A stretch of DNA of 55,364 nt. It comes from Elusimicrobiota bacterium (lineage in GTDB: Bacteria; CG03). How positions within the stretch are numbered: the stretch's first letter is position 1; each line of letters opens with the position of its first letter. The position numbers were made by a program, and so were the translations under genes. The stretch covers positions 1 to 55,364 of the forward strand of contig JAYEJT010000074.1 in assembly GCA_034660675.1 (NCBI GenBank), written 5' to 3'. Shown piece after piece: positions 3,193 through 53,882 of this stretch. Under the pieces are notes generated by a model. That model made no database searches and had not been told where the DNA came from. It saw only the letters and a program-made list of their open reading frames with translations.

Positions 3193-5025
3193 ATGAAGAA
3201 TATTATAAAACACCGGTTTTTAAAAAACAGTGTAAGGGGGGCAGGCGCGGTTTTTGCCGTGTTTGTGCTGGCCGCGTCTTTTGTTTACGCCCAGGAATTT
3301 GAAAAAATCAAAGATGTAAACGCGAAAGCGGATTCGGCGGATAAGTTGACCGTTACGGTTGATATGAGCGCACCTGCGAATTATTATCTTTTTAAAATAT
3401 CTAATCCTCCGCGGCTGGTAATTGAGTTTACAAGCACGCTTGCGGCAACGGATAAAAAAGATATAAAAGTGAAGAACTGTTTTATCAAACAAATCAGGGT
3501 CGGACAATATAAGGATAAACCCATAAAAATAGCGCGCATAGTTTTGGATCTGCCGTCGGCAGAAGTTTATTATGACGCTCTTGCCGCGGGAGATCAGGTG
3601 ATTGTGTCCGTTTCGTCTAAATCCGACAAAGCTGTTGTTAAAATGCCGGCGGTAATAAAGAGACGGAAAAAAACCGCGGTAAAAAAAATACCGGCTATTG
3701 AGAGAAACGTTCCCACCGCTGATCACAAAAATAAAATAAAGGAAATAAAAATCGCCGGTGAAACCGTTGCTCCCGCAGCAGAAGCTGTTGAGGAAGAGAG
3801 CGTTGGAAAGGTGAGCACTCATGGAGGAGTTCTTCAGATAAGCAAAAAAATAATATCCATGAATTTTTATCAGACAGATATAAGAACTATACTGAGAGCC
3901 GTTTCGGATCAGACCGGAATTAACATAATATACGGCCCTGATGTACAGGGTAATGTTACGCTTAAATTAAAAGATGTCACCTTTGATGACGCATTGAGAA
4001 TAATGCTCAAAATGTCCGGTCTTGTCGTTGAAAAGGAGGCGGATAACATCATAAGGATTATTACGCCCCAGGCGCTGAAAGACGAGCGTTCCCGTTCGGT
4101 GCAGTTCACAAGGGTGCTGCCGCTTAAATACACCCGCGCGGAAGACATAAAAACGCAGTTGTCATCTATAAAAGTGGAGGGCATCACGGCCACAATAGGT
4201 GAGGATCCTCTCACAAACAGCATTGTGCTCACAACAACGCCTGAGGGCATAGCAAAATATCAGGAGCTTATAAGCATTTTTGATGTGAAACCCAGGCAGG
4301 TGCTGATAGAGGCGAGTATTATGGAAGTGGATTATTATGACGGCCTGGATCTGGGCATATCATGGCAGTCCAGCGGTTTTAACGTCTATAACAAAGATGC
4401 CAATAACCTGGTTCAGGGAGCTATACAGAACAGTCCCGCCGCAACGCCGGGTGCGGGTGGCCGTCCTGCTCTAAACTCGTCGTCAGTGGGTCTTTCGTTA
4501 GCCGTGGGAGGTTTGATAAACTCAAATCAGTTCAGCGCGTTGATAGAGGCTCTTCAACAGAAAAGCAAAGCCAAGACTTTGGCAAAACCCAAGATTGTAA
4601 CCATGAATAATGAAAAGGCGACCATAATGTCCGGTGATCAGGTGCCTTTTTCCCAGACGACCGTTACCACCGCGGGCTCCACTCAGTCAACCATGTTTAC
4701 GGATGTGGGGATTCAGCTTGAAGTGACGCCCACCATACATTCTGATGAATATGTCACCCTTGAGGTGAAGCCCACCGTGAGTTCTTATAAAATGTCCACA
4801 GCAGGGCCCATTATAACAACAAGGGAAACGGACACCAAGGTTATGGTTAAAAGTAATGAAACGGTTGTTATAGGCGGTCTCATAAACGAGGCCGATCTTG
4901 AGGCCGTGGATCAGATGCCCATTTTAGGAGATCTGCCGATAATAGGGTATCTCTTTAAAAGACATCAGTCCTCAAAGGACAGGGTTGAGCTTCTTGTCTT
5001 CCTGAAACCGGTTATTCTTGACTGA
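3193..5025 (+). CDS. pilQ: Type IV pilus secretin PilQ
   Basis: 610 aa with a signal peptide and N-terminal AMIN-like region. The C-terminal secretin domain carries LAKPKIVTMNNEKATI...VVIGGL...MPILGDLPIIGYLFK. Confidence 0.9.
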   Translation: MKNIIKHRFLKNSVRGAGAVFAVFVLAASFVYAQEFEKIKDVNAKADSADKLTVTVDMSAPANYYLFKISNPPRLVIEFTSTLAATDKKDIKVKNCFIKQIRVGQYKDKPIKIARIVLDLPSAEVYYDALAAGDQVIVSVSSKSDKAVVKMPAVIKRRKKTAVKKIPAIERNVPTADHKNKIKEIKIAGETVAPAAEAVEEESVGKVSTHGGVLQISKKIISMNFYQTDIRTILRAVSDQTGINIIYGPDVQGNVTLKLKDVTFDDALRIMLKMSGLVVEKEADNIIRIITPQALKDERSRSVQFTRVLPLKYTRAEDIKTQLSSIKVEGITATIGEDPLTNSIVLTTTPEGIAKYQELISIFDVKPRQVLIEASIMEVDYYDGLDLGISWQSSGFNVYNKDANNLVQGAIQNSPAATPGAGGRPALNSSSVGLSLAVGGLINSNQFSALIEALQQKSKAKTLAKPKIVTMNNEKATIMSGDQVPFSQTTVTTAGSTQSTMFTDVGIQLEVTPTIHSDEYVTLEVKPTVSSYKMSTAGPIITTRETDTKVMVKSNETVVIGGLINEADLEAVDQMPILGDLPIIGYLFKRHQSSKDRVELLVFLKPVILD

Positions 5026-10895: not shown

Positions 10896-10979
10896 GGACA
10901 GGTGGGAGAGTGGTTAAATCCAGCAGACTGTAAATCTGCCGTCCATCGGGCTACGGTGGTTCGAATCCACCCCTGTCCA
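10896..10979 (+). tRNA. tRNA-Tyr (GTA), type II with long variable arm
   Basis: Cloverleaf folded by hand. The acceptor is GGACAGG/CCTGTCC, the anticodon loop CTGTAAA and the T-loop TTCGAAT. Confidence 0.85.
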
Positions 10980-10987
10980 GAAATTTT

Positions 10988-11058
10988 GCGGGAGTTGCAT
11001 AGTGGTAGTGCTCCAGCCTTCCAAGCTGGAAGTGTGGGTTCGATTCCCATCTCCCGCT
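10988..11058 (+). tRNA. tRNA-Gly (TCC)
   Basis: Acceptor GCGGGAG/CTCCCGC, anticodon stem CCAGC/GCTGG with loop CTTCCAA, and T-loop TTCGATT. Confidence 0.85.
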
Positions 11059-11177
11059 TTTAATTTGAGAGGAATCGAAGCCGACCCGAAGCGCGTCCTG
11101 TGGACGATAGTGAGCGTAGCGAACGGCAAGCAAGGGCGGCCGGCTTCGGCGGAAACGCGAAAGCGTTGGGGGAGAAG

Positions 11178-11203
11178 GATTCCCATCTCCCGCTTTTAAT
11201 TTG
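11178..11203. repeat. 26-nt perfect direct repeat of the tRNA-Gly 3' end plus 9 nt of downstream flank (gattcccatctcccgcttttaatttg)
   Basis: 11042-11067 is identical to 11178-11203. The T-arm is partially similar upstream of the second copy. The arrangement is attL/attR-like with only about 110 bp between the copies. Confidence 0.6.
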
Positions 11204-11273
11204 TGATGAGTCTGCCGTGGGGCGGATGAGGATGTTTTGGTAGAAGTTGTGAGGGTTCACCCGTCACGGCATC

Positions 11274-11346
11274 GCCTGGATAGCTCAGTTGGTAGAGCAC
11301 TTCCTTGGTAAGGACGAGGTCCCGGGTTCAAATCCCGGTCCAGGCT
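11274..11346 (+). tRNA. tRNA-Thr (GGT)
   Basis: Acceptor GCCTGGA/TCCAGGC, anticodon loop TTGGTAA and T-loop TTCAAAT. There is one T-C mismatch in the anticodon stem. Confidence 0.75.
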
Positions 11347-11385
11347 TATAAAACCGGATCAATCCGGTGAAGATAGTGAGGTAAA

Positions 11386-11550
11386 ATGGCTGTAGATTTA
11401 ATGACGATAGCTTTGCGCTGTTCCGAATGTAAAATGAAGAATTATTTTTTCAGGAAGAACAAGAAAAAGAAAGGCGCGAAAAAGCTTGAGTTGAAAAAAT
11501 ATTGCTCAACCTGCAAAAAGCACACTGTGCACAAGCAGGCAAAAGTTTAG
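11386..11550 (+). CDS. rpmG: 50S ribosomal protein L33
   Basis: 54 aa, below the ORF-track cutoff. MAVDLMTIALRCSECKMKNYFFRKNKKKKGAKKLELKKYCSTCKKHTVHKQAKV fits the L33 zinc-ribbon pattern (C-x2-C ... C-x2-C, ELKKYC). It has a GAGG SD, and its stop overlaps the tRNA-Trp 5' end. Confidence 0.8.
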   Translation: MAVDLMTIALRCSECKMKNYFFRKNKKKKGAKKLELKKYCSTCKKHTVHKQAKV

Positions 11551-11622
11551 GCCCGTAGCACAACTGGCTAGTGCGCCGGTCTCCAAAACCGGAGGTTGAA
11601 GGTTCAAGTCCTTCCGGGCCTG
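11549..11622 (+). tRNA. tRNA-Trp (CCA)
   Basis: Acceptor AGGCCCG/CGGGCCT, anticodon stem CCGGT/ACCGG with loop CTCCAAA, and T-arm GAAGG-TTCAAGT-CCTTC. Confidence 0.85.
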
Positions 11623-18355: not shown

Positions 18356-18428
18356 AGCCCGAGAGCGGGATCGAACCGCTGACCTGCTCATTACGAATGA
18401 GCTGCTCTACCAGCTGAGCTACCCGGGC
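18356..18428 (-). tRNA. tRNA-Thr (CGT)
   Basis: The reverse complement folds as GCCCGGG-TA-GCTC..GAGC-A-GCTCA-TTCGTAA-TGAGC-AGGTC-AGCGG-TTCGATC-CCGCT-CTCGGGC-T. Confidence 0.8.
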
Positions 18429-28085: not shown

Positions 28086-28183
28086 AATTATCAGCAGAAT
28101 AGTAAATTAAAAAATAAAAAGCAAGAGCCGGCTTTGTTGTCCGGCGCTTGATTAAAGAATTCAGGTGTGTGATAAATGTCAAC

Positions 28184-28213
28184 TTGCATAAAAGCCTGTT
28201 TCTTGTGTATAAT
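28184..28213 (+). promoter_or_regulatory. sigma70-like promoter (-35 TTGCAT 28184-28189, 18-nt spacer, -10 TATAAT 28208-28213) 6 nt upstream of the ATG at 28220
   Basis: Read directly. It lies inside the 5' extension of tracked ORF 28148-28579. Confidence 0.45.
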
Positions 28214-28219
28214 TCAGTT

Positions 28220-28579
28220 ATGGGTATAAGGCAATCGCATAGAAAATATGACAGAATAAAAGACACCCTGCTTTTGGATGTGTACAAGCCGGGCGCTTTT
28301 CAGCCGTCCTGCCGCGCATGTCTGACGGACATCAGTGCAGGCAGTGCGGGTTTAGAGTCAACATACCGTTTCAATCTGGGAGACAGAATAAATCTTGTTT
28401 TTAAGATGCAGGTTGAAGATAATCCTGATCGCCCTGAAAAGGAATATGTGGTAGATGCCATTATCAGAAGAGTGTCGCGTTCCACGGGGACTTTTTCTTA
28501 CGGAGTTGAATTTATTGTGCGCGGATTTTTTAAGCGCTGGGCGTTAAAAAGATTTGTAAAAAAACTTCTGGGATATTGA
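28220..28579 (+). CDS. PilZ-domain (c-di-GMP-binding) protein
   Basis: RQSHRKYDR gives the RxxxR motif and DISAGSAG the D/NxSxxG motif, about 35 aa apart. The start is moved to the ATG after the promoter. Confidence 0.5.
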   Translation: MGIRQSHRKYDRIKDTLLLDVYKPGAFQPSCRACLTDISAGSAGLESTYRFNLGDRINLVFKMQVEDNPDRPEKEYVVDAIIRRVSRSTGTFSYGVEFIVRGFFKRWALKRFVKKLLGY

Positions 28580-31816: not shown

Positions 31817-32965
31817 ATGGATATGATAGATATTCTGACATCGGCGGTTAAACTGGGGGTTTCCGATATTCACGTGGTGCCGAAAAAACCTGTGATGGTC
31901 AGAAAAAACGGCGCGATGACGCCTCTCCCCGAATATAAGGACACGGCTCTTTCGGGAGATGAGACAAAAACTCTCATATATGGAATTCTTCTTGATGAGC
32001 AGAAAAGCCAGTTTGAGGAAAACCTTGAACTGGACTGTTCTTTTCAGATAGAGAACATAAGCCGTTTCAGGGTGAATGTCCTCATGCAGAAAGACGGTGT
32101 CGGGGCGGTGCTGAGAGTTATCTCGTCGGAGATTCCCTCTACCGAGGCTCTGGCTTTTACTCCCGCCATGATGGCCTGCATGAAATATCCGAGAGGCCTT
32201 GTTCTTGTCACCGGCCCCACGGGTTCCGGAAAATCAACGACGCTTGCGGCCATGCTTGAAACCATCAATCAGGAGAGGCAGGATCACATTCTCACCATAG
32301 AGGACCCCATAGAATTTGTTTACAAATCAAAGGGCTGTATTTTTACGCAGAGGGAAGTGGGCGCTTCAACCCGCAGTTTTACAAGCGCTCTCCGCGCGGC
32401 GCTGAGGGAAGATCCCGATATCGTGCTCGTGGGTGAGATGCGGGATCTTGAAACGATAGGCGCGGCTCTGACGATTGCCGAAACGGGGCATCTTGTTTTC
32501 GGCACGCTTCACACAACCGACGCTCCTCAGACGGTTGACAGAATAATAGACGTTTTTCCTTCCCATCAGCAAGCGCAGGTGAGAACTCAGCTTTCGGTGA
32601 CTCTGAAAGCTGTGATAACACAGCAGCTTCTGCAAACGCCCGACGGGAAGGGCCGCTGCGCGGCGAGGGAGATTCTTGTTGTCACTCCGGCTATAGCCAA
32701 TCTCATAAGAGACGGGAAAACGCATCTTATTTACGGAGCCCTGGAAACGGGAATGAAATTTGGTATGATTTCCATGGACAAGGCTCTGGCCCAGCTTGTA
32801 AAAGCGGGTAAAATAACAAAGGAAGCCGCTGTGGCGAAAGCCGGCAACCCTGACATGCTGAATCAGTATATAGCCGCCGCGGGCAGAGTGGCGGGCAGAG
32901 CGCCCGGTATGTCCGGCGGAATGTCCGGCGGTGGCGGAGCGGCTCCCGCCAAAAGGCCTTTTTAA
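31817..32965 (+). CDS. pilT: Twitching-motility retraction ATPase PilT
   Basis: Walker A GPTGSGKST, Walker B VLVGEMRD and the PilT AIRNLIRE-like AIANLIRDGK motif. There is a Gly-rich C-terminal tail of about 30 aa. Confidence 0.9.
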   Translation: MDMIDILTSAVKLGVSDIHVVPKKPVMVRKNGAMTPLPEYKDTALSGDETKTLIYGILLDEQKSQFEENLELDCSFQIENISRFRVNVLMQKDGVGAVLRVISSEIPSTEALAFTPAMMACMKYPRGLVLVTGPTGSGKSTTLAAMLETINQERQDHILTIEDPIEFVYKSKGCIFTQREVGASTRSFTSALRAALREDPDIVLVGEMRDLETIGAALTIAETGHLVFGTLHTTDAPQTVDRIIDVFPSHQQAQVRTQLSVTLKAVITQQLLQTPDGKGRCAAREILVVTPAIANLIRDGKTHLIYGALETGMKFGMISMDKALAQLVKAGKITKEAAVAKAGNPDMLNQYIAAAGRVAGRAPGMSGGMSGGGGAAPAKRPF

Positions 32966-32974
32966 GGAGAGAGT

Positions 32975-34090
32975 ATGAACGAACTTAACGATTATCTGAA
33001 AAAGCTTGTGGAGCTTGACGGGAGCGACCTGCACATAAAATGCGGTCAGCCCGCTATATACAGGGTGAACGGCCAGCTGACAAAAAGCGAAGAAGCCCCT
33101 TTTACCGCGGAGGCGATAGAAACGCTTTTCAAAAACGCCGTCGGTGAGGAAAAATATGCCCGTTTTGTCGAGGAAAAGGAATACGATTTTGCCGTGGCGA
33201 TTGAGGGTAGAGGGAGATTCAGGGGGAATCTTTTTTTTCAGAAGGGCGCGCCCGGCGGGGTGTTCCGTCTCATACCGGAGGCCATACCGTCCATTGACGA
33301 AATGGGGCTGCCTGAAGTTCTCAAAGAAATAGTGAAGAAGTCCAACGGACTTGTTCTTGTTGTCGGCCCCACCGGTTCGGGCAAATCAACGACTCTGGCG
33401 GCGATGATAAACGAAATAAACCAGACCGAAAAGCTCAACATCATAACCGTGGAGGATCCCATAGAATTCGTCCACAAGGACGCCGGATGTATTGTGAACC
33501 AGAGGGAAATAGGCATGGACACCGTTTCGTGGGAGAGTTCTCTCAAGAGAGCCCTGCGCCAGGATCCCGATGTCATTCTTGTCGGAGAGATGAGGGATGC
33601 CTCTTCTATCTCTATAGCTATAAGCGCCGCGGAAACGGGTCACCTTGTTTTTTCCACGCTTCACACGAACGACGCGAAACAGACGATAGAACGAATTGTT
33701 GATTCTTTTCCGCCCGAAGGGCAGGACTTTGTGCGCCATCAGCTTTCTCTTGCTCTTGTGTCCATTGTTTCGCAGAGGCTTTGTAAGACGAAGGACGGCG
33801 CGGGGCGTGTGGCCGCCCATGAGATAATGATAAACACGCCCGTTATAGCCAAGGCCATAGAGGAGAACCAGCCCGGAAAAATACAGCAGTTTATAGCGGA
33901 CTCGGCTTCTTTCTATAACATGTCCACCCTTAATCAGTCTTTGTTCCGTCTCATAAATGAGGATAAAATAAGCGAGGAAGAGGCCATGGGCATAAGCAAC
34001 AATCCCAACGATCTGAAAATAAAAATAAAAACAACAGGGCCTGCCGCGGAAGCCGCCGCGGAACCCGAAAAAAAGTTGAGGAAGTTCTGA
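32975..34090 (+). CDS. pilU: Second PilT/PilU-family ATPase
   Basis: Motifs GPTGSGKST, ILVGEMRD and VIAKAIEEN. It is a paralog of the upstream gene. Confidence 0.85.
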   Translation: MNELNDYLKKLVELDGSDLHIKCGQPAIYRVNGQLTKSEEAPFTAEAIETLFKNAVGEEKYARFVEEKEYDFAVAIEGRGRFRGNLFFQKGAPGGVFRLIPEAIPSIDEMGLPEVLKEIVKKSNGLVLVVGPTGSGKSTTLAAMINEINQTEKLNIITVEDPIEFVHKDAGCIVNQREIGMDTVSWESSLKRALRQDPDVILVGEMRDASSISIAISAAETGHLVFSTLHTNDAKQTIERIVDSFPPEGQDFVRHQLSLALVSIVSQRLCKTKDGAGRVAAHEIMINTPVIAKAIEENQPGKIQQFIADSASFYNMSTLNQSLFRLINEDKISEEEAMGISNNPNDLKIKIKTTGPAAEAAAEPEKKLRKF

Positions 34091-34980
34091 TGCTGAAAAA
34101 GAAACTTGAAAACATACCCCTTTTCGCGTCGCTGGCGGATGATGAGTTGGCTGCCCTGGCGGAGATTTCCGAAATCAAAAAATACAATCAGGGAGAAGCT
34201 GTATTCGCCGAGGGTGATAAGGGAAAGGATATTTTTTTTCTCGTGAGCGGCGAGGTTTCCATCCGGAAAAAAATATCGTCGGGCTTTAAAACCATAGCGG
34301 TTCTCCGTGAAGGCGATTTGTTCGGAGAAATGTCTTTTTTTGAAAATGCCCCCCGTTCGGCGGATGCTCTTGCTTCGGATGACTGCGATATTCTCGGCAT
34401 AAATGGCGCTGAGTTTGAGAGTTTCCTGTCTGACAAACCCCGTAAAAGTTTCAGCATTCTCATGAAGATGCTGGCAATATCTTCGGCGAGGCTGAGAAAC
34501 ATGGACAGGTATTTTACCACACTTTATCAGACTGCCAGGATTATGTCTTCCTGCTCTTCTGTGGAAGAGCTTGCGGAAAAGATTCTTCCGGAGATTATTG
34601 ATTCTCTGCCTGTCTCCGGCGCGGCCCTGTATATGTACAGCGTGTTTGACGGGGAATACAATCTGGCCGCGGCCGTATCAGCGGAGGCGGCTCAAACCGT
34701 TTCCAGCGGTTCTTCTTTTATGGAAAAACTCTCCGCGGGTAAAAATATCTGTGACGCAAATGTGCCGGATTTGCCGGGTTTGAGGTTTTTTTCACCGATA
34801 GAAGACGGAAACGGGCTGATAGGATTTATAGGGATTGCCGCGGCAAATGATCCCGCCGCTGAAGACAGAATACTGATCGGTACCGTCTGTAACATGATAA
34901 GTCCTGTCATTGTTAATCTGAGGACAAAACAGGAGGAGCTTATGAAAGACAGGCTTAAAAATAAAAAATGGCAGCTTTAG
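34090..34980 (+). CDS. Cyclic-nucleotide-binding (CAP_ED) domain protein with an uncharacterised C-terminal domain
   Basis: The cNMP-binding signature is GDLFGEMSFF ... RSADA. The start overlaps the pilT2 stop (TGATG). Confidence 0.65.
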   Translation: MLKKKLENIPLFASLADDELAALAEISEIKKYNQGEAVFAEGDKGKDIFFLVSGEVSIRKKISSGFKTIAVLREGDLFGEMSFFENAPRSADALASDDCDILGINGAEFESFLSDKPRKSFSILMKMLAISSARLRNMDRYFTTLYQTARIMSSCSSVEELAEKILPEIIDSLPVSGAALYMYSVFDGEYNLAAAVSAEAAQTVSSGSSFMEKLSAGKNICDANVPDLPGLRFFSPIEDGNGLIGFIGIAAANDPAAEDRILIGTVCNMISPVIVNLRTKQEELMKDRLKNKKWQL

Positions 34981-40435: not shown

Positions 40436-40509
40436 CGGGGTGTGGCCCAGTTGGCTAGGGCGCTGCGTTCGGGACGCAGAGGTCGGCGGTTCAAGTCCGC
40501 CCACCCCGA
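40436..40509 (+). tRNA. tRNA-Pro (CGG)
   Basis: Acceptor CGGGGTG/CACCCCG, anticodon stem CTGCG/CGCAG with loop TTCGGGA, and T-arm GGCGG-TTCAAGT-CCGCC. Confidence 0.85.
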
Positions 40510-43229: not shown

Positions 43230-44144
43230 ATGTATGTTGTAGGAATAGACGAAAACGGACTCGGCCCGCGACTTGGAATGTTCTGTGTGACAGCTGCTGT
43301 TTTTGAATGCAGCTCTTATGACAAAAATCTTTTCTGGAAAAACGCTTCCGATGGTGCCGTTGATGACAGCAAAAAAGTGATGGCATCCGGCCGCACGGGG
43401 AAGGGAAGAAGGATAGCCGCCGCGTATCTGGCGCAACTCGGACATTTTCCGGAAACCGACGCGGATTTTATAGAATTTGTTAATCACAGAAGCGCCGGTT
43501 CCCTCAGTAATGATTGCCCCCCGTGTGTAAGAAGCATGTGCAGGGCGGGGCATTCTCCTTTTTGTGAAGACAGCGTTTCAGCCGTTTCGGATAACCTGTT
43601 TTCGCTGCTGAAGGACGCCGGAATAAGATTTGCCGGAGCGGAAAGCGTGTTTCTTTGTCCGAAAGAATTCAACAGGGGGATAGACAGATTTGGTTCCAAA
43701 ATGATGCTGGAGTTTTTTATCATGGAGAAGTTTTTCAGGAAATACGGCGCAGCGGATACCGGAAGAGGGGAGACTCTTTTTATATGCGGAAAACTCGGAG
43801 GTACCAAAAGATACGGCCGGTATTTTGATTATCTCAAAAAATATAGGGTCGCAAATTTGCAGGAGGGCACTGATTCCTTCTATGAATTTGACGGGTTAGG
43901 GAGGATAGAGTTTGTTAAAGACGGCGATGCCCTGCATTTGCCGGTGGCGCTGGCTTCTGTTTTCGGTAAGCTTGTCCGTGAAATATTCATGGACAGTCTC
44001 AACGGATATTTTGGAAATCTTGACAAGAGCCTCCCCGTGGTTTCGGGTTATAACGACCATTTGACCCGTGAGTTTATAGAAAAGACCGTGCCGGTGAGGA
44101 GGGAGCGGGGTATACCGGATATCTGCTTTCTGAGAAAGCGCTGA
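43230..44144 (+). CDS. Divergent RNase HII-like protein with an internal Cys-rich insertion
   Basis: The N-terminus VVGIDENGLGPRLG ... DDSKKV parallels RNase HII motifs GxDEAGRGP and DSK. The C-terminal VALASVFGKLVRE resembles AASIxAKxxRD. There is an insertion of about 130 aa containing CPPCVRSMCRAGHSPFC. Confidence 0.45.
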   Translation: MYVVGIDENGLGPRLGMFCVTAAVFECSSYDKNLFWKNASDGAVDDSKKVMASGRTGKGRRIAAAYLAQLGHFPETDADFIEFVNHRSAGSLSNDCPPCVRSMCRAGHSPFCEDSVSAVSDNLFSLLKDAGIRFAGAESVFLCPKEFNRGIDRFGSKMMLEFFIMEKFFRKYGAADTGRGETLFICGKLGGTKRYGRYFDYLKKYRVANLQEGTDSFYEFDGLGRIEFVKDGDALHLPVALASVFGKLVREIFMDSLNGYFGNLDKSLPVVSGYNDHLTREFIEKTVPVRRERGIPDICFLRKR

Positions 44145-44224
44145 AAAATATTAAGGACGTCCCCTTTTCCTCTTTACACTTCCAACTTTTCAAACTATAA
44201 TAGTACTGAAAGGCCTGAGAAGGG

Positions 44225-44335
44225 TGCCTCTGAATTGGCTGGTCCAATATCGGCAAATCCGTCGTAAGGCGGAGACGCAAAGCCACGGGTCCCGTGCGGG
44301 AGCGGGGGACAGCCGGGTTGCCTGAGGATGGTGCG
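44225..44335 (+). promoter_or_regulatory. c-di-GMP-I (GEMM) riboswitch aptamer
   Basis: GGCAAA-TCCGTC-GTAA-GGCGGA-G-ACGCAAAGCC at 44252-44285 reproduces the GEMM signature: GGCAAA, a 6-bp P1 hairpin with a GNRA loop, then the invariant ACGCAAAGC. A GC-rich second hairpin follows. The element lies in a 230-nt 5' leader. Confidence 0.6.
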
Positions 44336-44339
44336 TCAA

Positions 44340-44370
44340 GGTTCAGTCAGACGAGGCTGAACCTTTTTTT
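44340..44370 (+). terminator. Intrinsic terminator (expression platform of the riboswitch): ggttcag-tcagacgagg-ctgaacc followed by TTTTTTT
   Basis: 7-bp stem and U7 tract read directly, ending 9 nt before the ATG at 44379. Confidence 0.6.
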
Positions 44371-44378
44371 AATTTATT

Positions 44379-45971
44379 ATGAAAAATAGAAAAGAAATTA
44401 CCGGATTGATGCTTACGGCAGCCGCTATTTTTGCGTTCAATTTCTATCTTGAAGCAGAAAAAGGGACGGGCGGCATGCCCGGAGCTTTTTTATCTTACGG
44501 AGCCGGAGCGAGGTCGCTGGCCATGGGTAAGGCCTTTGTCGCCGAAGCTTCCGACGCTTCCGCCACTTACTGGAATCCCGCCGGGCTCGGCAATGTGGAG
44601 AGACAGGAGGCGATGATGCTCCACACAATGCTTTGGGCGGGCACCACTTATGATTTCTTGAGTTATGTGCGGCCGATGACACAGCTCGGGGCGGTGGGTT
44701 TGAGTATGGTCAAAATGACGACCGGCGGTTTTGAAGGGTACGATGTGTATAATGACAAAGCTACCAATTTTAGCGATAATCAGATGGCGGTGACGATGAG
44801 CATGGGAAAAAAATTCATGAAAACTTTGTCTCTCGGAGCTAATTTCAGATATATGACGCACACTCTGGCATGGCACACAAATTCAAGCTTTCTCATTGAT
44901 ATGGGAGGGCTCTACGCTCTGCCGAAAACGCCGAATCTCCGGCTGGGTTTTAATATACAGAATATTTTTGAGAACAAGCTCTCGCCGACGGAAGACAAAA
45001 TGCCGTTGACAATACGCATGGGCGCGGTGTATAAGCAGTTTAAGGACAAGCTCTCCGTAACAACAGATATTGTCAGCATAGCGGGCGTGCCGGATCTGGA
45101 AACTCATTTCGGCGTGGAGTACTGGCTTCTGGATTATTTCGCGTTTCGCGCCGGGATGGACGCTCAGGAAAAGAGTTTCGGGTTTGGCGTAAACTGGCAG
45201 AGTATAGGTTTTGATTACGCCATGTCCATGCATGACCTCGGGCTTTCTCACAGGATGTCTGCGAGTCTCCGTTTCGGTCCTTCCATAGCGGCGAAAAGAA
45301 GGCTTGACGCGCGTCAGGAGTATTTGAAAGCACATGCGGCTTTTGAAAAAGGTTATCTCTCCCGCGGTAAGGATTTTCTGGGCAGAGCCGTTTCGCTGGA
45401 TCCGCAGAACACGGATTACATATATGAATTTGACCGGATAGACGTCATTATCCCCATTTACAGGGAGGCTCCGAAGCCCAGCAAGGAACACGAGCTTTTG
45501 CGCCGTAGCGTGAAAAAATATCTTGACCGCAGAGTTGAACACAGCCTGCAGATACTCCGTTATCTCCTCACGCTGGACCCCGGCAATGCCAAAGTTATCG
45601 CGCTTATACAGGCGGTCAAAAACAAAGAGGGTTTAACCGATCTGGAGCCGGAACTCCCGTCAGGGATGAATCTCGTGGACAAAAACCTCTATGATTCGCT
45701 TAATTATTTTTATGACGGGAAATATGAGCAGGCGCTGAAACTGGCTCAGGATGTTCTGATACTGGAGCCTAATTCGGCGCTGGCATACAAGAGAATAGGG
45801 TCCGCTTTTTTCGCGATAGGAGAAAGGGATAGGGCCGTGGCAAACTGGAAAAAATCCATAGAGCTCGATCCCACAGATGAAAAGCTGCGGCAGTTTGTGT
45901 CAAAGATAGAAAGAGAAGCCTCGGAGGCCGCTCCGACGGAAGGGCTGGATTTTCTGGATAATATGGAGTGA
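44379..45971 (+). CDS. Outer-membrane beta-barrel (FadL/PorV-like N-terminal region) fused to a C-terminal TPR domain
   Basis: Signal peptide. The GAGARSLAMGKAFVAEASDASATYWNPAGLG motif is typical of OMPP1/FadL/PorV-type barrels. The C-terminal 230 aa hold TPR repeats (YEQALKLAQDVLILEPNSALAYKRIGSAFFAIGERDRAVANWKKSIELDP). Confidence 0.55.
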   Translation: MKNRKEITGLMLTAAAIFAFNFYLEAEKGTGGMPGAFLSYGAGARSLAMGKAFVAEASDASATYWNPAGLGNVERQEAMMLHTMLWAGTTYDFLSYVRPMTQLGAVGLSMVKMTTGGFEGYDVYNDKATNFSDNQMAVTMSMGKKFMKTLSLGANFRYMTHTLAWHTNSSFLIDMGGLYALPKTPNLRLGFNIQNIFENKLSPTEDKMPLTIRMGAVYKQFKDKLSVTTDIVSIAGVPDLETHFGVEYWLLDYFAFRAGMDAQEKSFGFGVNWQSIGFDYAMSMHDLGLSHRMSASLRFGPSIAAKRRLDARQEYLKAHAAFEKGYLSRGKDFLGRAVSLDPQNTDYIYEFDRIDVIIPIYREAPKPSKEHELLRRSVKKYLDRRVEHSLQILRYLLTLDPGNAKVIALIQAVKNKEGLTDLEPELPSGMNLVDKNLYDSLNYFYDGKYEQALKLAQDVLILEPNSALAYKRIGSAFFAIGERDRAVANWKKSIELDPTDEKLRQFVSKIEREASEAAPTEGLDFLDNME

Positions 45972-52075: not shown

Positions 52076-52858
52076 ATGGATTTTGCGACAATTGTAGGTT
52101 TTGCAGCGGGTATAGGGCTTATAGTCCTTGCTATTATCAGCCGTGTGGGGGTTGCGGGTTTTCTGACAAGTTTTGTGGATTACCAGTCTGTCGCTATCAC
52201 TCTTGGCGGCACCTTCGCCGCGACAATGGTTAATTATTCTTTCCATGAGCTTGTGAGTGTCTTTGCCATAGCCAAAAAGGTTTTTATGCAGAAAGATGAT
52301 GATGCCGTGGGAATTATAGATACCGTTGTAAGACTTACGAAAAAATCCAGGACACAGGGTATGCTCTCGATTGAGCAGGATATAAAGGAGTTACCCACCC
52401 CCTTTCTCCGTCACGGTTTTTCGCTCGTTCTGGCCAACATTGATGTTGAAACGATAAGAACGGAGCTTGAAACCGAAATAATTTTTTTGCGCGAACGGCA
52501 CAAGCTGGGGCAGGAGATATTTTTGACAATGGGGACATTTGCTCCCGCTTTCGGTATGTTGGGAACGATCATGGGTCTCATCATGATGCTTGCGAATCTG
52601 GAAGACCAGGCGGCTATTGCCGGCGGTATGGCCGTGGCTCTTCTTACAACTCTTTACGGCGCGCTTCTGGCGAATATCATATTTCTGCCTGTTTCCGGCA
52701 AACTCAAAAGAAAAAGCGAAGATGAAGTGCTGATCAAGGAAATAATAATAGAGGGAATAATATCAATGAAAAACGGTGACATTCCGTCAATAATAGAATC
52801 TAAACTCAAAGCTTATCTACCGCCGAAAAAAAGAGAAAGAAAAATCATAGAAAAATAA
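52076..52858 (+). CDS. motA: MotA/PomA-family stator (proton-channel) protein
   Basis: 260 aa with 2 TM helices, a cytoplasmic loop of about 100 aa, and 2 further TM helices carrying the conserved TFAPAFGMLGTIMGLI ... GGMAVALLTTLYGALLAN region. There is a GAGG SD. Confidence 0.8.
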   Translation: MDFATIVGFAAGIGLIVLAIISRVGVAGFLTSFVDYQSVAITLGGTFAATMVNYSFHELVSVFAIAKKVFMQKDDDAVGIIDTVVRLTKKSRTQGMLSIEQDIKELPTPFLRHGFSLVLANIDVETIRTELETEIIFLRERHKLGQEIFLTMGTFAPAFGMLGTIMGLIMMLANLEDQAAIAGGMAVALLTTLYGALLANIIFLPVSGKLKRKSEDEVLIKEIIIEGIISMKNGDIPSIIESKLKAYLPPKKRERKIIEK

Positions 52859-52859
52859 T

Positions 52860-53882
52860 ATGGTGAAAAAAAGGACGTCGGAGACAGAACAGGTTGGCCC
52901 GACAGCGCCGGGCTGGATGGTCACATACGGTGACCTCATGACACAGCTTCTTATCTTTTTTGTCATGATGTTTGCCCTGGCTTCCGCTATGAATGAGATG
53001 CAGCTGATCAATCTTCAAACAAAGATGCAGCAGTATATAGACAGAGAAGATCTGGGTAACGATGTTTCACTGGCTGTGGACGAGAGGGGGCTTATTGTTT
53101 CTTTTCACGGCGACAAGATGTATGAAAAAGGAGACGCCGAAATAAAACCCGCGGCGCTGACGGCTTTGGCCAATCTTGCGGCTTTCGTGCGGCCGCAGCC
53201 CAATGAGGTGCGGATAGAGGCCCACGCGGATAAGACAGAATCCCCGGGCAGATATTCATCGTTATGGAATCTTTCCTCTACGCGGGCCTCACTGATAGCG
53301 AAACAGCTTATTGGAAAAATATATTTTCCGCCTTACCGGCTTTCATCAGCCGGTTATGCCGAGCAGAAACCTTACATTGAAAAAGACGGCGATACATACA
53401 AAATGCTTGAAGGCCGGAGCGCAGATCTGCTTAAAACTTCTTCTTCCGCGTTTTTCTATGAAGTCAGCCGTATGATAAAAAGAAAGATAGATGCCGGATT
53501 GCTGGAAAAACGGAAAAAATTAGATAAAAAATACAGGAATGATCCCCGGGGCAAGGTTCTTATCCGTCTCATGTCGTCTAATTACAGAGCGGGGCTGGAA
53601 AAAAAATATAACAGGATATTTCAGCGTCTGAAATTAAAAACCGAATTCAAAAACAGAACGGGGAAATGGGCGGAGGCGGTCACGGCGCTTAAATTTGAAG
53701 ATTTTGAAATTGAAATCCTCGCGGCGAAGGAGGATTATATCAAAGCGCAGTTCTATGACAGACTGCAGAAGGAAATTGTGACGCTGGCTAACCTTTCCCC
53801 CTCGCAGCAGAACAGAAACCGCCGTGTGGACCTTATTGTGGCGCGTATTTCGCCGCAATCGGCGAAGGAACGCCTGCTGTAG
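52860..53882 (+). CDS. motB: MotB-family stator protein (TM helix with conserved Asp, OmpA-like peptidoglycan-binding domain, long Lys-rich C-terminal extension)
   Basis: WMVTYGDLMTQLLIFFVMMFAL matches the MotB plug/TM (WMVTYADLMT). The OmpA-like core is EAHADKT...NLSSTRASLIAKQL. About 140 aa of extra C-terminal sequence follow. Confidence 0.8.
   Translation: MVKKRTSETEQVGPTAPGWMVTYGDLMTQLLIFFVMMFALASAMNEMQLINLQTKMQQYIDREDLGNDVSLAVDERGLIVSFHGDKMYEKGDAEIKPAALTALANLAAFVRPQPNEVRIEAHADKTESPGRYSSLWNLSSTRASLIAKQLIGKIYFPPYRLSSAGYAEQKPYIEKDGDTYKMLEGRSADLLKTSSSAFFYEVSRMIKRKIDAGLLEKRKKLDKKYRNDPRGKVLIRLMSSNYRAGLEKKYNRIFQRLKLKTEFKNRTGKWAEAVTALKFEDFEIEILAAKEDYIKAQFYDRLQKEIVTLANLSPSQQNRNRRVDLIVARISPQSAKERLL

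Follow-up and report, generated by a model that had tools for sequence, protein, structure and literature searches.

In class I c-di-GMP (GEMM-I) riboswitches, the nucleotides G20, A47 and C92 (Vc2 numbering) contact the ligand. The Vc2 RNA from Vibrio cholerae (Rfam family RF01051) is built from two helices joined by a GGCAAA ... GACGCAAAGCC junction, with a GNRA tetraloop capping the first helix, and members of its class occupy 5′-leader sites before surface or motility genes. ON-type GEMM-I switches exist. For the variant family RF03167 (c-di-GMP-I-GGC), the letters "GGC" in the 2017 work of Weinberg et al. reportedly stand for the three ligand-contacting nucleotides, the parent class being "GAC" (G20/A47/C92). 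In Clostridioides difficile, class I c-di-GMP riboswitches, including the one before flgB (Cd1), are transcriptional OFF switches, and c-di-GMP represses motility (PMC11477304).

Here, we analyzed a window of 55,364 nucleotides, the whole stretch of contig JAYEJT010000074.1 presented above, which carries an aptamer of this kind in the leader of an operon for an OMP, a FliF-FliG fusion, a coiled-coil protein, MotA and MotB. The element shares with Vc2 and its class the two helices, the junction, the GNRA-capped first helix, the G20/A47/C92 pocket and the leader position before surface or motility genes. It differs from that class in its GUAA loop and the lack of the 11-nt receptor in P2, in an apparent displacement of one P1 strand by 20 nt in the upstream direction, in a small extra hairpin ahead of G20, and in its host phylum, Elusimicrobiota. 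With Cd1 it has in common a class I aptamer followed by an intrinsic terminator and a long motor or motility operon; whereas the OFF direction of Cd1 is established (PMC11477304), that of the window element is a prediction. Furthermore, the window operon, unlike that of Cd1, is limited in its flagellar genes to a FliF_C/FliG fusion and MotAB, which it encodes alongside an OMP and a giant coiled-coil protein; no other flagellar genes (export apparatus, rod, hook, filament) were found among the ORFs scanned. The RF03167 variant resembles the window element in its short P2 without a receptor and gives it its top covariance score of 60.1 bits, but the window has A rather than G at the A47 position. 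The scaffold is also common to the c-AMP-GMP (GEMM-Ib) riboswitches of Geobacter and relatives; the window has G20, while some Elusimicrobiota orthologues have A20.

Since the RNA class, its ligand and control by termination are well established, the element itself is a routine annotation. What is unusual about it is the probable distal P1 with the inserted hairpin and the misleading Rfam label. In the literature searched, nothing relevant was found on c-di-GMP riboswitches in Elusimicrobia, on non-flagellar FliG-MotAB systems or on a link between them, although earlier publication is possible. The features discussed below are collected in Table 1.

Table 1. Positions of the leader and operon features in the window
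Feature	Position	Strand	Basis or remark
Sigma-70-type promoter, TTTACA-17 nt-TATAAT	44173..44201	+	11/12 consensus positions
TATAAT box	44196-44201	+	transcription start implied near 44208
Distal P1 5′ strand CCUCUG (proposed)	44227..44232	+	invariant in 10/10 window-clade leaders
Leader element CCUCUGAAUUGGCUGGUCC	44227..44245	+	complementary to terminator 5′ arm and loop (44340-44356)
Hairpin H0: AUUGG, loop CUGGU, CCAAU	44234..44248	+	between distal P1 and G20; P1-forced folds
GEMM-I aptamer core (Rfam match)	44243..44326	+	cmscan alignment
G20; A47; C92	44252; 44279; 44321	+	cmscan alignment, Vc2 numbering
GC/GC clamp	44253-54 with 44277-78	+	cmscan alignment
P1a	44258-63 with 44268-73	+	cmscan alignment, covariation
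GUAA tetraloop	44264-67	+	cmscan alignment
P2	44281-44293 with 44306-44319	+	cmscan alignment, covariation
Distal P1 3′ strand CUGAGG (proposed)	44322..44327	+	directly after C92; C-N-GAGG in all clade members
Intrinsic terminator: stem AAGGUUCAGUC / GGCUGAACCUU, loop AGACGA, U7	44338..44370	+	terminator scan
PorV/PorQ/UPF0164-family OMP beta-barrel with C-terminal TPR, 530 aa	44379..45971	+	Pfam; NCBIfam
FliF_C + FliG_M + FliG_C + TPR fusion, 699 aa	46063..48162	+	Pfam
Coiled-coil protein, 1297 aa	48162..52055	+	weak SMC, filament and coiled-coil matches only
MotA/PomA-like stator channel	52076-52858	+	Pfam; NCBIfam
MotB, plug and OmpA peptidoglycan-binding domain	52860-53882	+	Pfam; NCBIfam

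Aptamer identity, pocket and ligand

Searching the whole window with cmscan against Rfam gave a single riboswitch match, at 44243-44326 on the forward strand (60.1 bits, E 9.9e-12, clan CL00126). Together with a score of 79 bits on a covariance model made from orthologous aptamers, this bears out the GEMM class I signature that an earlier note had read from the letters of the sequence. The individual motifs on which that reading was built are all in place: GGCAAA at 44252-44257, a 6-bp helix (44258-44263 with 44268-44273) capped by a GNRA loop (GUAA at 44264-44267), and the conserved GACGCAAAGCC after the first helix at 44274-44284. The choice of class I rather than class II agrees with the search as well: for 44100-44450, c-di-GMP-II (RF01786) does not appear among the matches listed at E <= 10. 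The leader at 44219-44372 folds at -65.4 kcal/mol, compared with -52.8 +/- 3.5 kcal/mol for dinucleotide shuffles (z = -3.6), and none of the 200 shuffles was as good. Taken as a whole, it is very likely that the window holds a functional GEMM-I aptamer.

For comparison, 79 genome loci with OMP relatives (designated by L numbers) were collected, and the covariance model was made from 19 of the aptamers lying upstream. Homologues of this first downstream protein come almost only from Elusimicrobiota MAGs, and an exact-sequence look-up of the window OMP protein returned no record. In the 79 loci, the model finds 59 aptamers, every one on the coding strand. Among the Elusimicrobiota loci that hold a full-length OMP and extend upstream of it, 47 of 56 have an aptamer ahead of the OMP gene; of the 21 loci with only a PorV-domain homologue, none has one ahead of that gene. 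Two loci, L088 and L089 (OMP identity 54%), have at 1274-1500 a very A+T-rich leader of 228 nt with no detectable aptamer, suggesting that the riboswitch was lost or replaced in some lineages.

The alignment of the 19 orthologues supports both helices that are joined by the GGCAAA / GACGCAAAGCC junction. Double changes occur in all six P1a pairs and in five of the ten P2 pairs, and 92% of the cells at paired positions are paired; shuffles reach 75%, and sliding the partners leaves 21-44%. The earlier note had also named the second helix with its tetraloop receptor as a touchstone of GEMM identity. The helix stands, with its covarying pairs, but a receptor motif is absent from the window aptamer, whose GUAA is a GYRA-type loop. 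Among the orthologues, a receptor-like CUAA(A/G)/CCUAA motif accompanies 15 of 25 GAAA loops versus 1 of 23 GYRA loops, and this sole motif beside a GYRA loop, at the base of P2, appears fortuitous. Because the loop of the window is of the GYRA type and receptor-like motifs go mostly with GAAA loops, the missing receptor is no argument against membership. A GUAA loop without a receptor would, from its sequence, match the known GYRA subtype.

With regard to the Rfam family, the search suggested in the earlier note had been framed around RF01051. A clan member did score above its gathering score, but the family reported is RF03167, c-di-GMP-I-GGC, as the best-scoring model (60.1 bits, passing a gathering score of 59). 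Under clan competition only the best clan member is reported per site, here RF03167 rather than RF01051. In gathering mode, a further overlapping clan member was also above its own gathering score at the same place, and this second member is most likely RF01051 (gathering score 35). The closest genome homologue is L001, whose OMP is 90% identical to that of the window. Its aptamer, near-identical to the window's, has RF01051 as its best model at 65.2 bits.

The two families differ in their pocket consensus at one place, which is that of A47: RF03167 reads GACGCGAAgCc, with an upper-case G, and RF01051 reads GACGCAAAgCc. Set against the RF03167 consensus GACGCGAA, with G at the A47 position, the window sequence GACGCAAAG has A at 44279. 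The window therefore presents G20/A47/C92, the canonical c-di-GMP pocket. The hallmark of the GGC variant is absent not only from the window but also from 58 of 58 orthologous aptamers, other best scorers on RF03167 among them. In view of this A, it is extremely improbable that the window aptamer is a true RF03167 member with an altered ligand, even though its best clan score lies with that family. Instead, RF03167 seems to outscore the parent model on the short, receptor-less P2 and not on the pocket. The same combination, RF03167 as the best clan match above the gathering score despite A47, was found in L003 (2845-2919), L005 (2710-2784), L006 (1662-1736), L008 (307-381), L002 (2854-2947), L007 (78-175) and L019 (2272-2368). 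Clan competition thus labels aptamers with a canonical pocket as the "GGC" variant, which could inflate counts of this orphan variant.

Read from the pocket nucleotides alone, the ligand of the window aptamer is likely to be c-di-GMP. Across the orthologous aptamers, A47 and C92 are invariant (58/58), while position 20 is G in 47 and A in 11 of the 58. A20 is a change common in c-AMP-GMP-responsive variants (PMC9481103; PMC7266159), and its occurrence in these 11 genome aptamers, as well as in L085 and L082 within the window clade, raises the question of whether the window aptamer senses 3′,3′-cGAMP, or both dinucleotides, instead of c-di-GMP alone. In the window, the A20 signature of GEMM-Ib is absent, 44252 being G, and G is likewise found in the closest relatives L001, L080 and L002, which makes cGAMP sensing at this locus quite unlikely.

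Orthologues with A20 stand before the same operon in L018 (1240-1339), L026 (2056-2151), L029, L031, L032 and L033, further ones in L036, L037, L038, L052 and L069, and those of the window clade at L085 1296-1381 and L082 399-518. This alternation of G20 and A20 before one operon would offer a natural system in which to study changes in ligand specificity. Tandem aptamers, which are common in this riboswitch class (PMC9481103), were found in eight loci: L019 (1988-2082 and 2268-2371), L020, L026, L027, L028, L030, L039 and L061. In each pair, which again precedes this operon, 200-300 nt separate the two GEMM-I copies, and several of the pairs come from MAGs labelled Endomicrobiales. The pair in L026 is mixed, with A20 in the first copy and G20 in the second.

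Leader anatomy and the proposed switch

The promoter of the window has a counterpart, TTGACA-N17-TATAAT, at the same place in orthologous leaders. As the preceding gene stops at 44144, the terminator at 44338-44370 falls within the 5′ leader that belongs to the ATG at 44379, downstream of the conserved promoter. A 7-bp hairpin followed by U7 had been described here before. The U7 and the position directly ahead of the start codon are correct, but the stem measures 11 bp (44338-44348 with 44355-44365) around a 6-nt loop, the seven U occupying 44364-44370. The hairpin of the window has an energy of -15.6 kcal/mol, compared with about -13 to -18 kcal/mol for the terminators of its clade. This window clade consists of 10 leaders with an OMP identity of 68-92%, which are mutually related and hence are not independent evidence. 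Pairing in the terminator reaches 100% across them, and two of its base pairs show compensatory changes.

Upstream of G20, the P1 of the Rfam model (44243/45/46 with 44322/23/26) has two non-pairs in the window. A local alternative of 3-4 bp (UCC/GGA) was set aside in favor of a 6-bp distal P1, CCUCUG/CUGAGG, which is the probable closing helix of the window aptamer. In the 10 leaders of the clade, 93% of the distal P1 cells are paired, four pairs being invariant and two changed on one side, with no compensatory changes. The variable nucleotide of the C-N-GAGG strand is U in four leaders, G in five and A in one, and in the window it gives rise to a U-U mismatch (44231/44323). Hairpin H0, which separates distal P1 from G20, has equivalents in all clade members (UUGGC/GCCAA, UGGC/GCCA). 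Without any constraint, the full-length MFE structures of L003, L081 and L085 consist of distal P1, H0, the aptamer and the terminator, and that of L082 of P1, the aptamer and the terminator without H0.

When metagenomes were scanned for the P1a/core sequence, at least 120 matches turned up, of which 7 or 8 belong to the window clade, and no new P1 variation was found among the latter. Outside the clade, 112 of the at least 120 aptamers come without the leader element and without this terminator. A separate 5′-proximal hairpin, GGCC(U/C)-GARAAG-GG(U)GCC, is present at 44212-44228; it is kept only in L001, L080 and L002, the closest relatives of the window, and extends over the two initial nucleotides of the proposed 5′ strand of P1.

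The mismatched model P1, together with a distal P1 that shows no covariation and contains a U-U mismatch, could be taken as signs of a decaying relic, in which P1 no longer closes and the hairpin is a constitutive attenuator or a pause site. All core and pocket nucleotides are nevertheless intact. Moreover, orthologues whose OMPs are only 68-75% identical, and in which the neighbouring leader sequence has diverged, show no variation in the leader element, the 3′ strand of P1 or the arms of the terminator. With this pattern of conservation, decay is very unlikely.

The earlier note had raised the question of whether P1 and the terminator are mutually exclusive. They are not: the two can coexist, and when P1 is forced, each of the 10 leaders gives a terminator probability of 1.0. 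The full-length MFE contains the terminator with or without forced P1, so that any switching must be kinetic, which places it beyond proof by thermodynamic folding. A competitor of the terminator becomes visible when the RNA is ended before the 3′ arm of the terminator. In nine of the 10 leaders, the 5′ arm then pairs with the leader element (P = 0.45-0.85). For the window transcript, this antiterminator has P = 0.64, and 0 with P1 forced; across the leaders, forcing P1 likewise lowers it to approximately 0 (0.19 in L003). The P1-free state is more stable than the P1-forced state by 7-11 kcal/mol, a difference for which the energy of tight ligand binding could plausibly compensate.

In the MFE of the truncated transcript, the antiterminator consists of CCUC paired with GAGG, UUGGCUGG with UCAGUCAG, and CC with GG. 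A register CUGAAUU:GGUUCAG was considered and dropped, as the computed MFE prefers UUGGCUGG:UCAGUCAG plus CCUC:GAGG, and several registers are possible. A pairing of GACGC (44274-78) with GCGUC (44333-37) in the window MFE is not conserved in L001 or L002 and was taken as fortuitous. The duplex between leader element and terminator arm has an energy of -14.2 kcal/mol in the window, marginally better than the -8.3 +/- 2.9 kcal/mol of shuffles (z = -2.1; 4.8% of the shuffles reach it). In the other nine leaders, it amounts to -14.6 to -17.7 kcal/mol (z = -2.5 to -4.5). In the leaders of the clade, the energy of this duplex is comparable to that of the terminator hairpin.

From folding and comparison, the following mechanism can be proposed. 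Transcription would start about 7 nt past the TATAAT box (44196-44201), giving a leader of 44208-44378. With c-di-GMP bound, distal P1 (44227-32 with 44322-27) and H0 (44234-48) would close the aptamer and thereby sequester the leader element (44227-44245), leaving the terminator (44338-44370) free to form; polymerase would then halt 8 nt before the start codon (OFF). In the absence of ligand, P1 would stay open and the leader element would pair with 44340-44356 before the 3′ arm is transcribed; with the antiterminator in place, polymerase would read on into the OMP, FliF-FliG, coiled-coil, MotA and MotB genes. On balance, we consider it reasonably probable that the riboswitch is a kinetically controlled transcriptional OFF switch, with the distal P1, the antiterminator and the direction of control modelled in this way. 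The OFF direction is predicted because P1 competes with the antiterminator and not with the terminator.

The same aptamer and ligand could also serve an ON switch, with the terminator as the default, c-di-GMP preventing it and the operon being induced. The terminator is indeed thermodynamically favoured in every full-length fold, as such a default would be. On the other hand, the 3′ strand of P1 (44322-27) has no nucleotide in common with the terminator stem, 10 nt separating the two, and forcing P1 keeps the terminator at 1.0 and removes the only competitor found. The same pattern recurs in 13 of 14 orthologues from other clades, which makes induction by c-di-GMP improbable and repression the favored direction. 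In these other clades, whose sequences differ, the 5′ arm of the terminator is engaged by the aptamer or leader with P = 0.43-0.94 in the free state, dropping to 0-0.46 once the aptamer is forced (13 of 14 scored). In L010-L016 and L021, the complement of GAUAAAGGCAA lies inside the terminator (z = -2 to -6). A complement of the G20 segment within the terminator, as in the L010-L016 design, is absent from the window clade (z = -0.6).

The downstream operon and other genes of the window

Domain searches with Pfam agree with the location given in the earlier note, ahead of an OMP-FliFG-MotAB cluster, the riboswitch lying in the leader of the gene at 44379. The first product (44379-45971) matches the NCBIfam PorV_fam model with 136 bits (cut-off 90). 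In the second, residues 310-530 of the fusion match Thermotoga maritima FliG (3ajc, 1lkv) with E 4e-32. The NCBIfam matches of the stator proteins to MotP/PomA/MotA and MotB/MotS are all below the equivalog cut-offs. The OMP gene and the FliG-fusion gene are adjacent in about 45 loci, and in L081 (10001-21044) the gene order is kept, with Wzy_C/TPR and HD-domain genes following it there. As the earlier note had remarked, the start codon at 44379 has no Shine-Dalgarno-like motif before it in a crude scan. This is nothing special in the window, where the same scan finds such a motif at 16 of 36 ORF starts and about half of the starts are likewise without one.

A motility or surface machine, turned off at high c-di-GMP, is the probable product of the operon. 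More tentatively, the loci may represent an undescribed, phylum-wide c-di-GMP-repressed regulon for a non-flagellar, envelope-spanning rotary machine, in which the FliF_C-FliG fusion would act as rotor and MotAB as stator, with the 1297-aa coiled-coil protein and the PorV-like outer-membrane barrel as further parts; in some lineages, this machine would have moved to cGAMP control through A20. We regard this broader reading as speculative. For an uncharacterised FliG/MotAB/PorV-like/coiled-coil operon conserved Elusimicrobiota-wide, the tie to c-di-GMP signalling provides a testable regulatory handle and a hint of function.

Elsewhere in the window, a PilZ protein had been noted at 28220-28579, and a PilZ domain is indeed found in the ORF at 28148-28579 (28.1 bits, cut-off 22.5). 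Of the ORFs scanned, none encoded a GGDEF or EAL protein. Genes of a type IV pilus comprise PilM (136-1278), a secretin (3193-5025) and two PilT/T2SS-E ATPases (31817-34090), and a cNMP-binding protein is encoded at 34090-34980. Judging from these pilus, PilZ and cNMP-binding genes, the riboswitch-controlled operon is accompanied by pili and a second cyclic-nucleotide system. In addition, cmscan identified a cluster of four tRNA genes at 10896-11622 and two more at 18356-18428 and 40436-40509, six in all.
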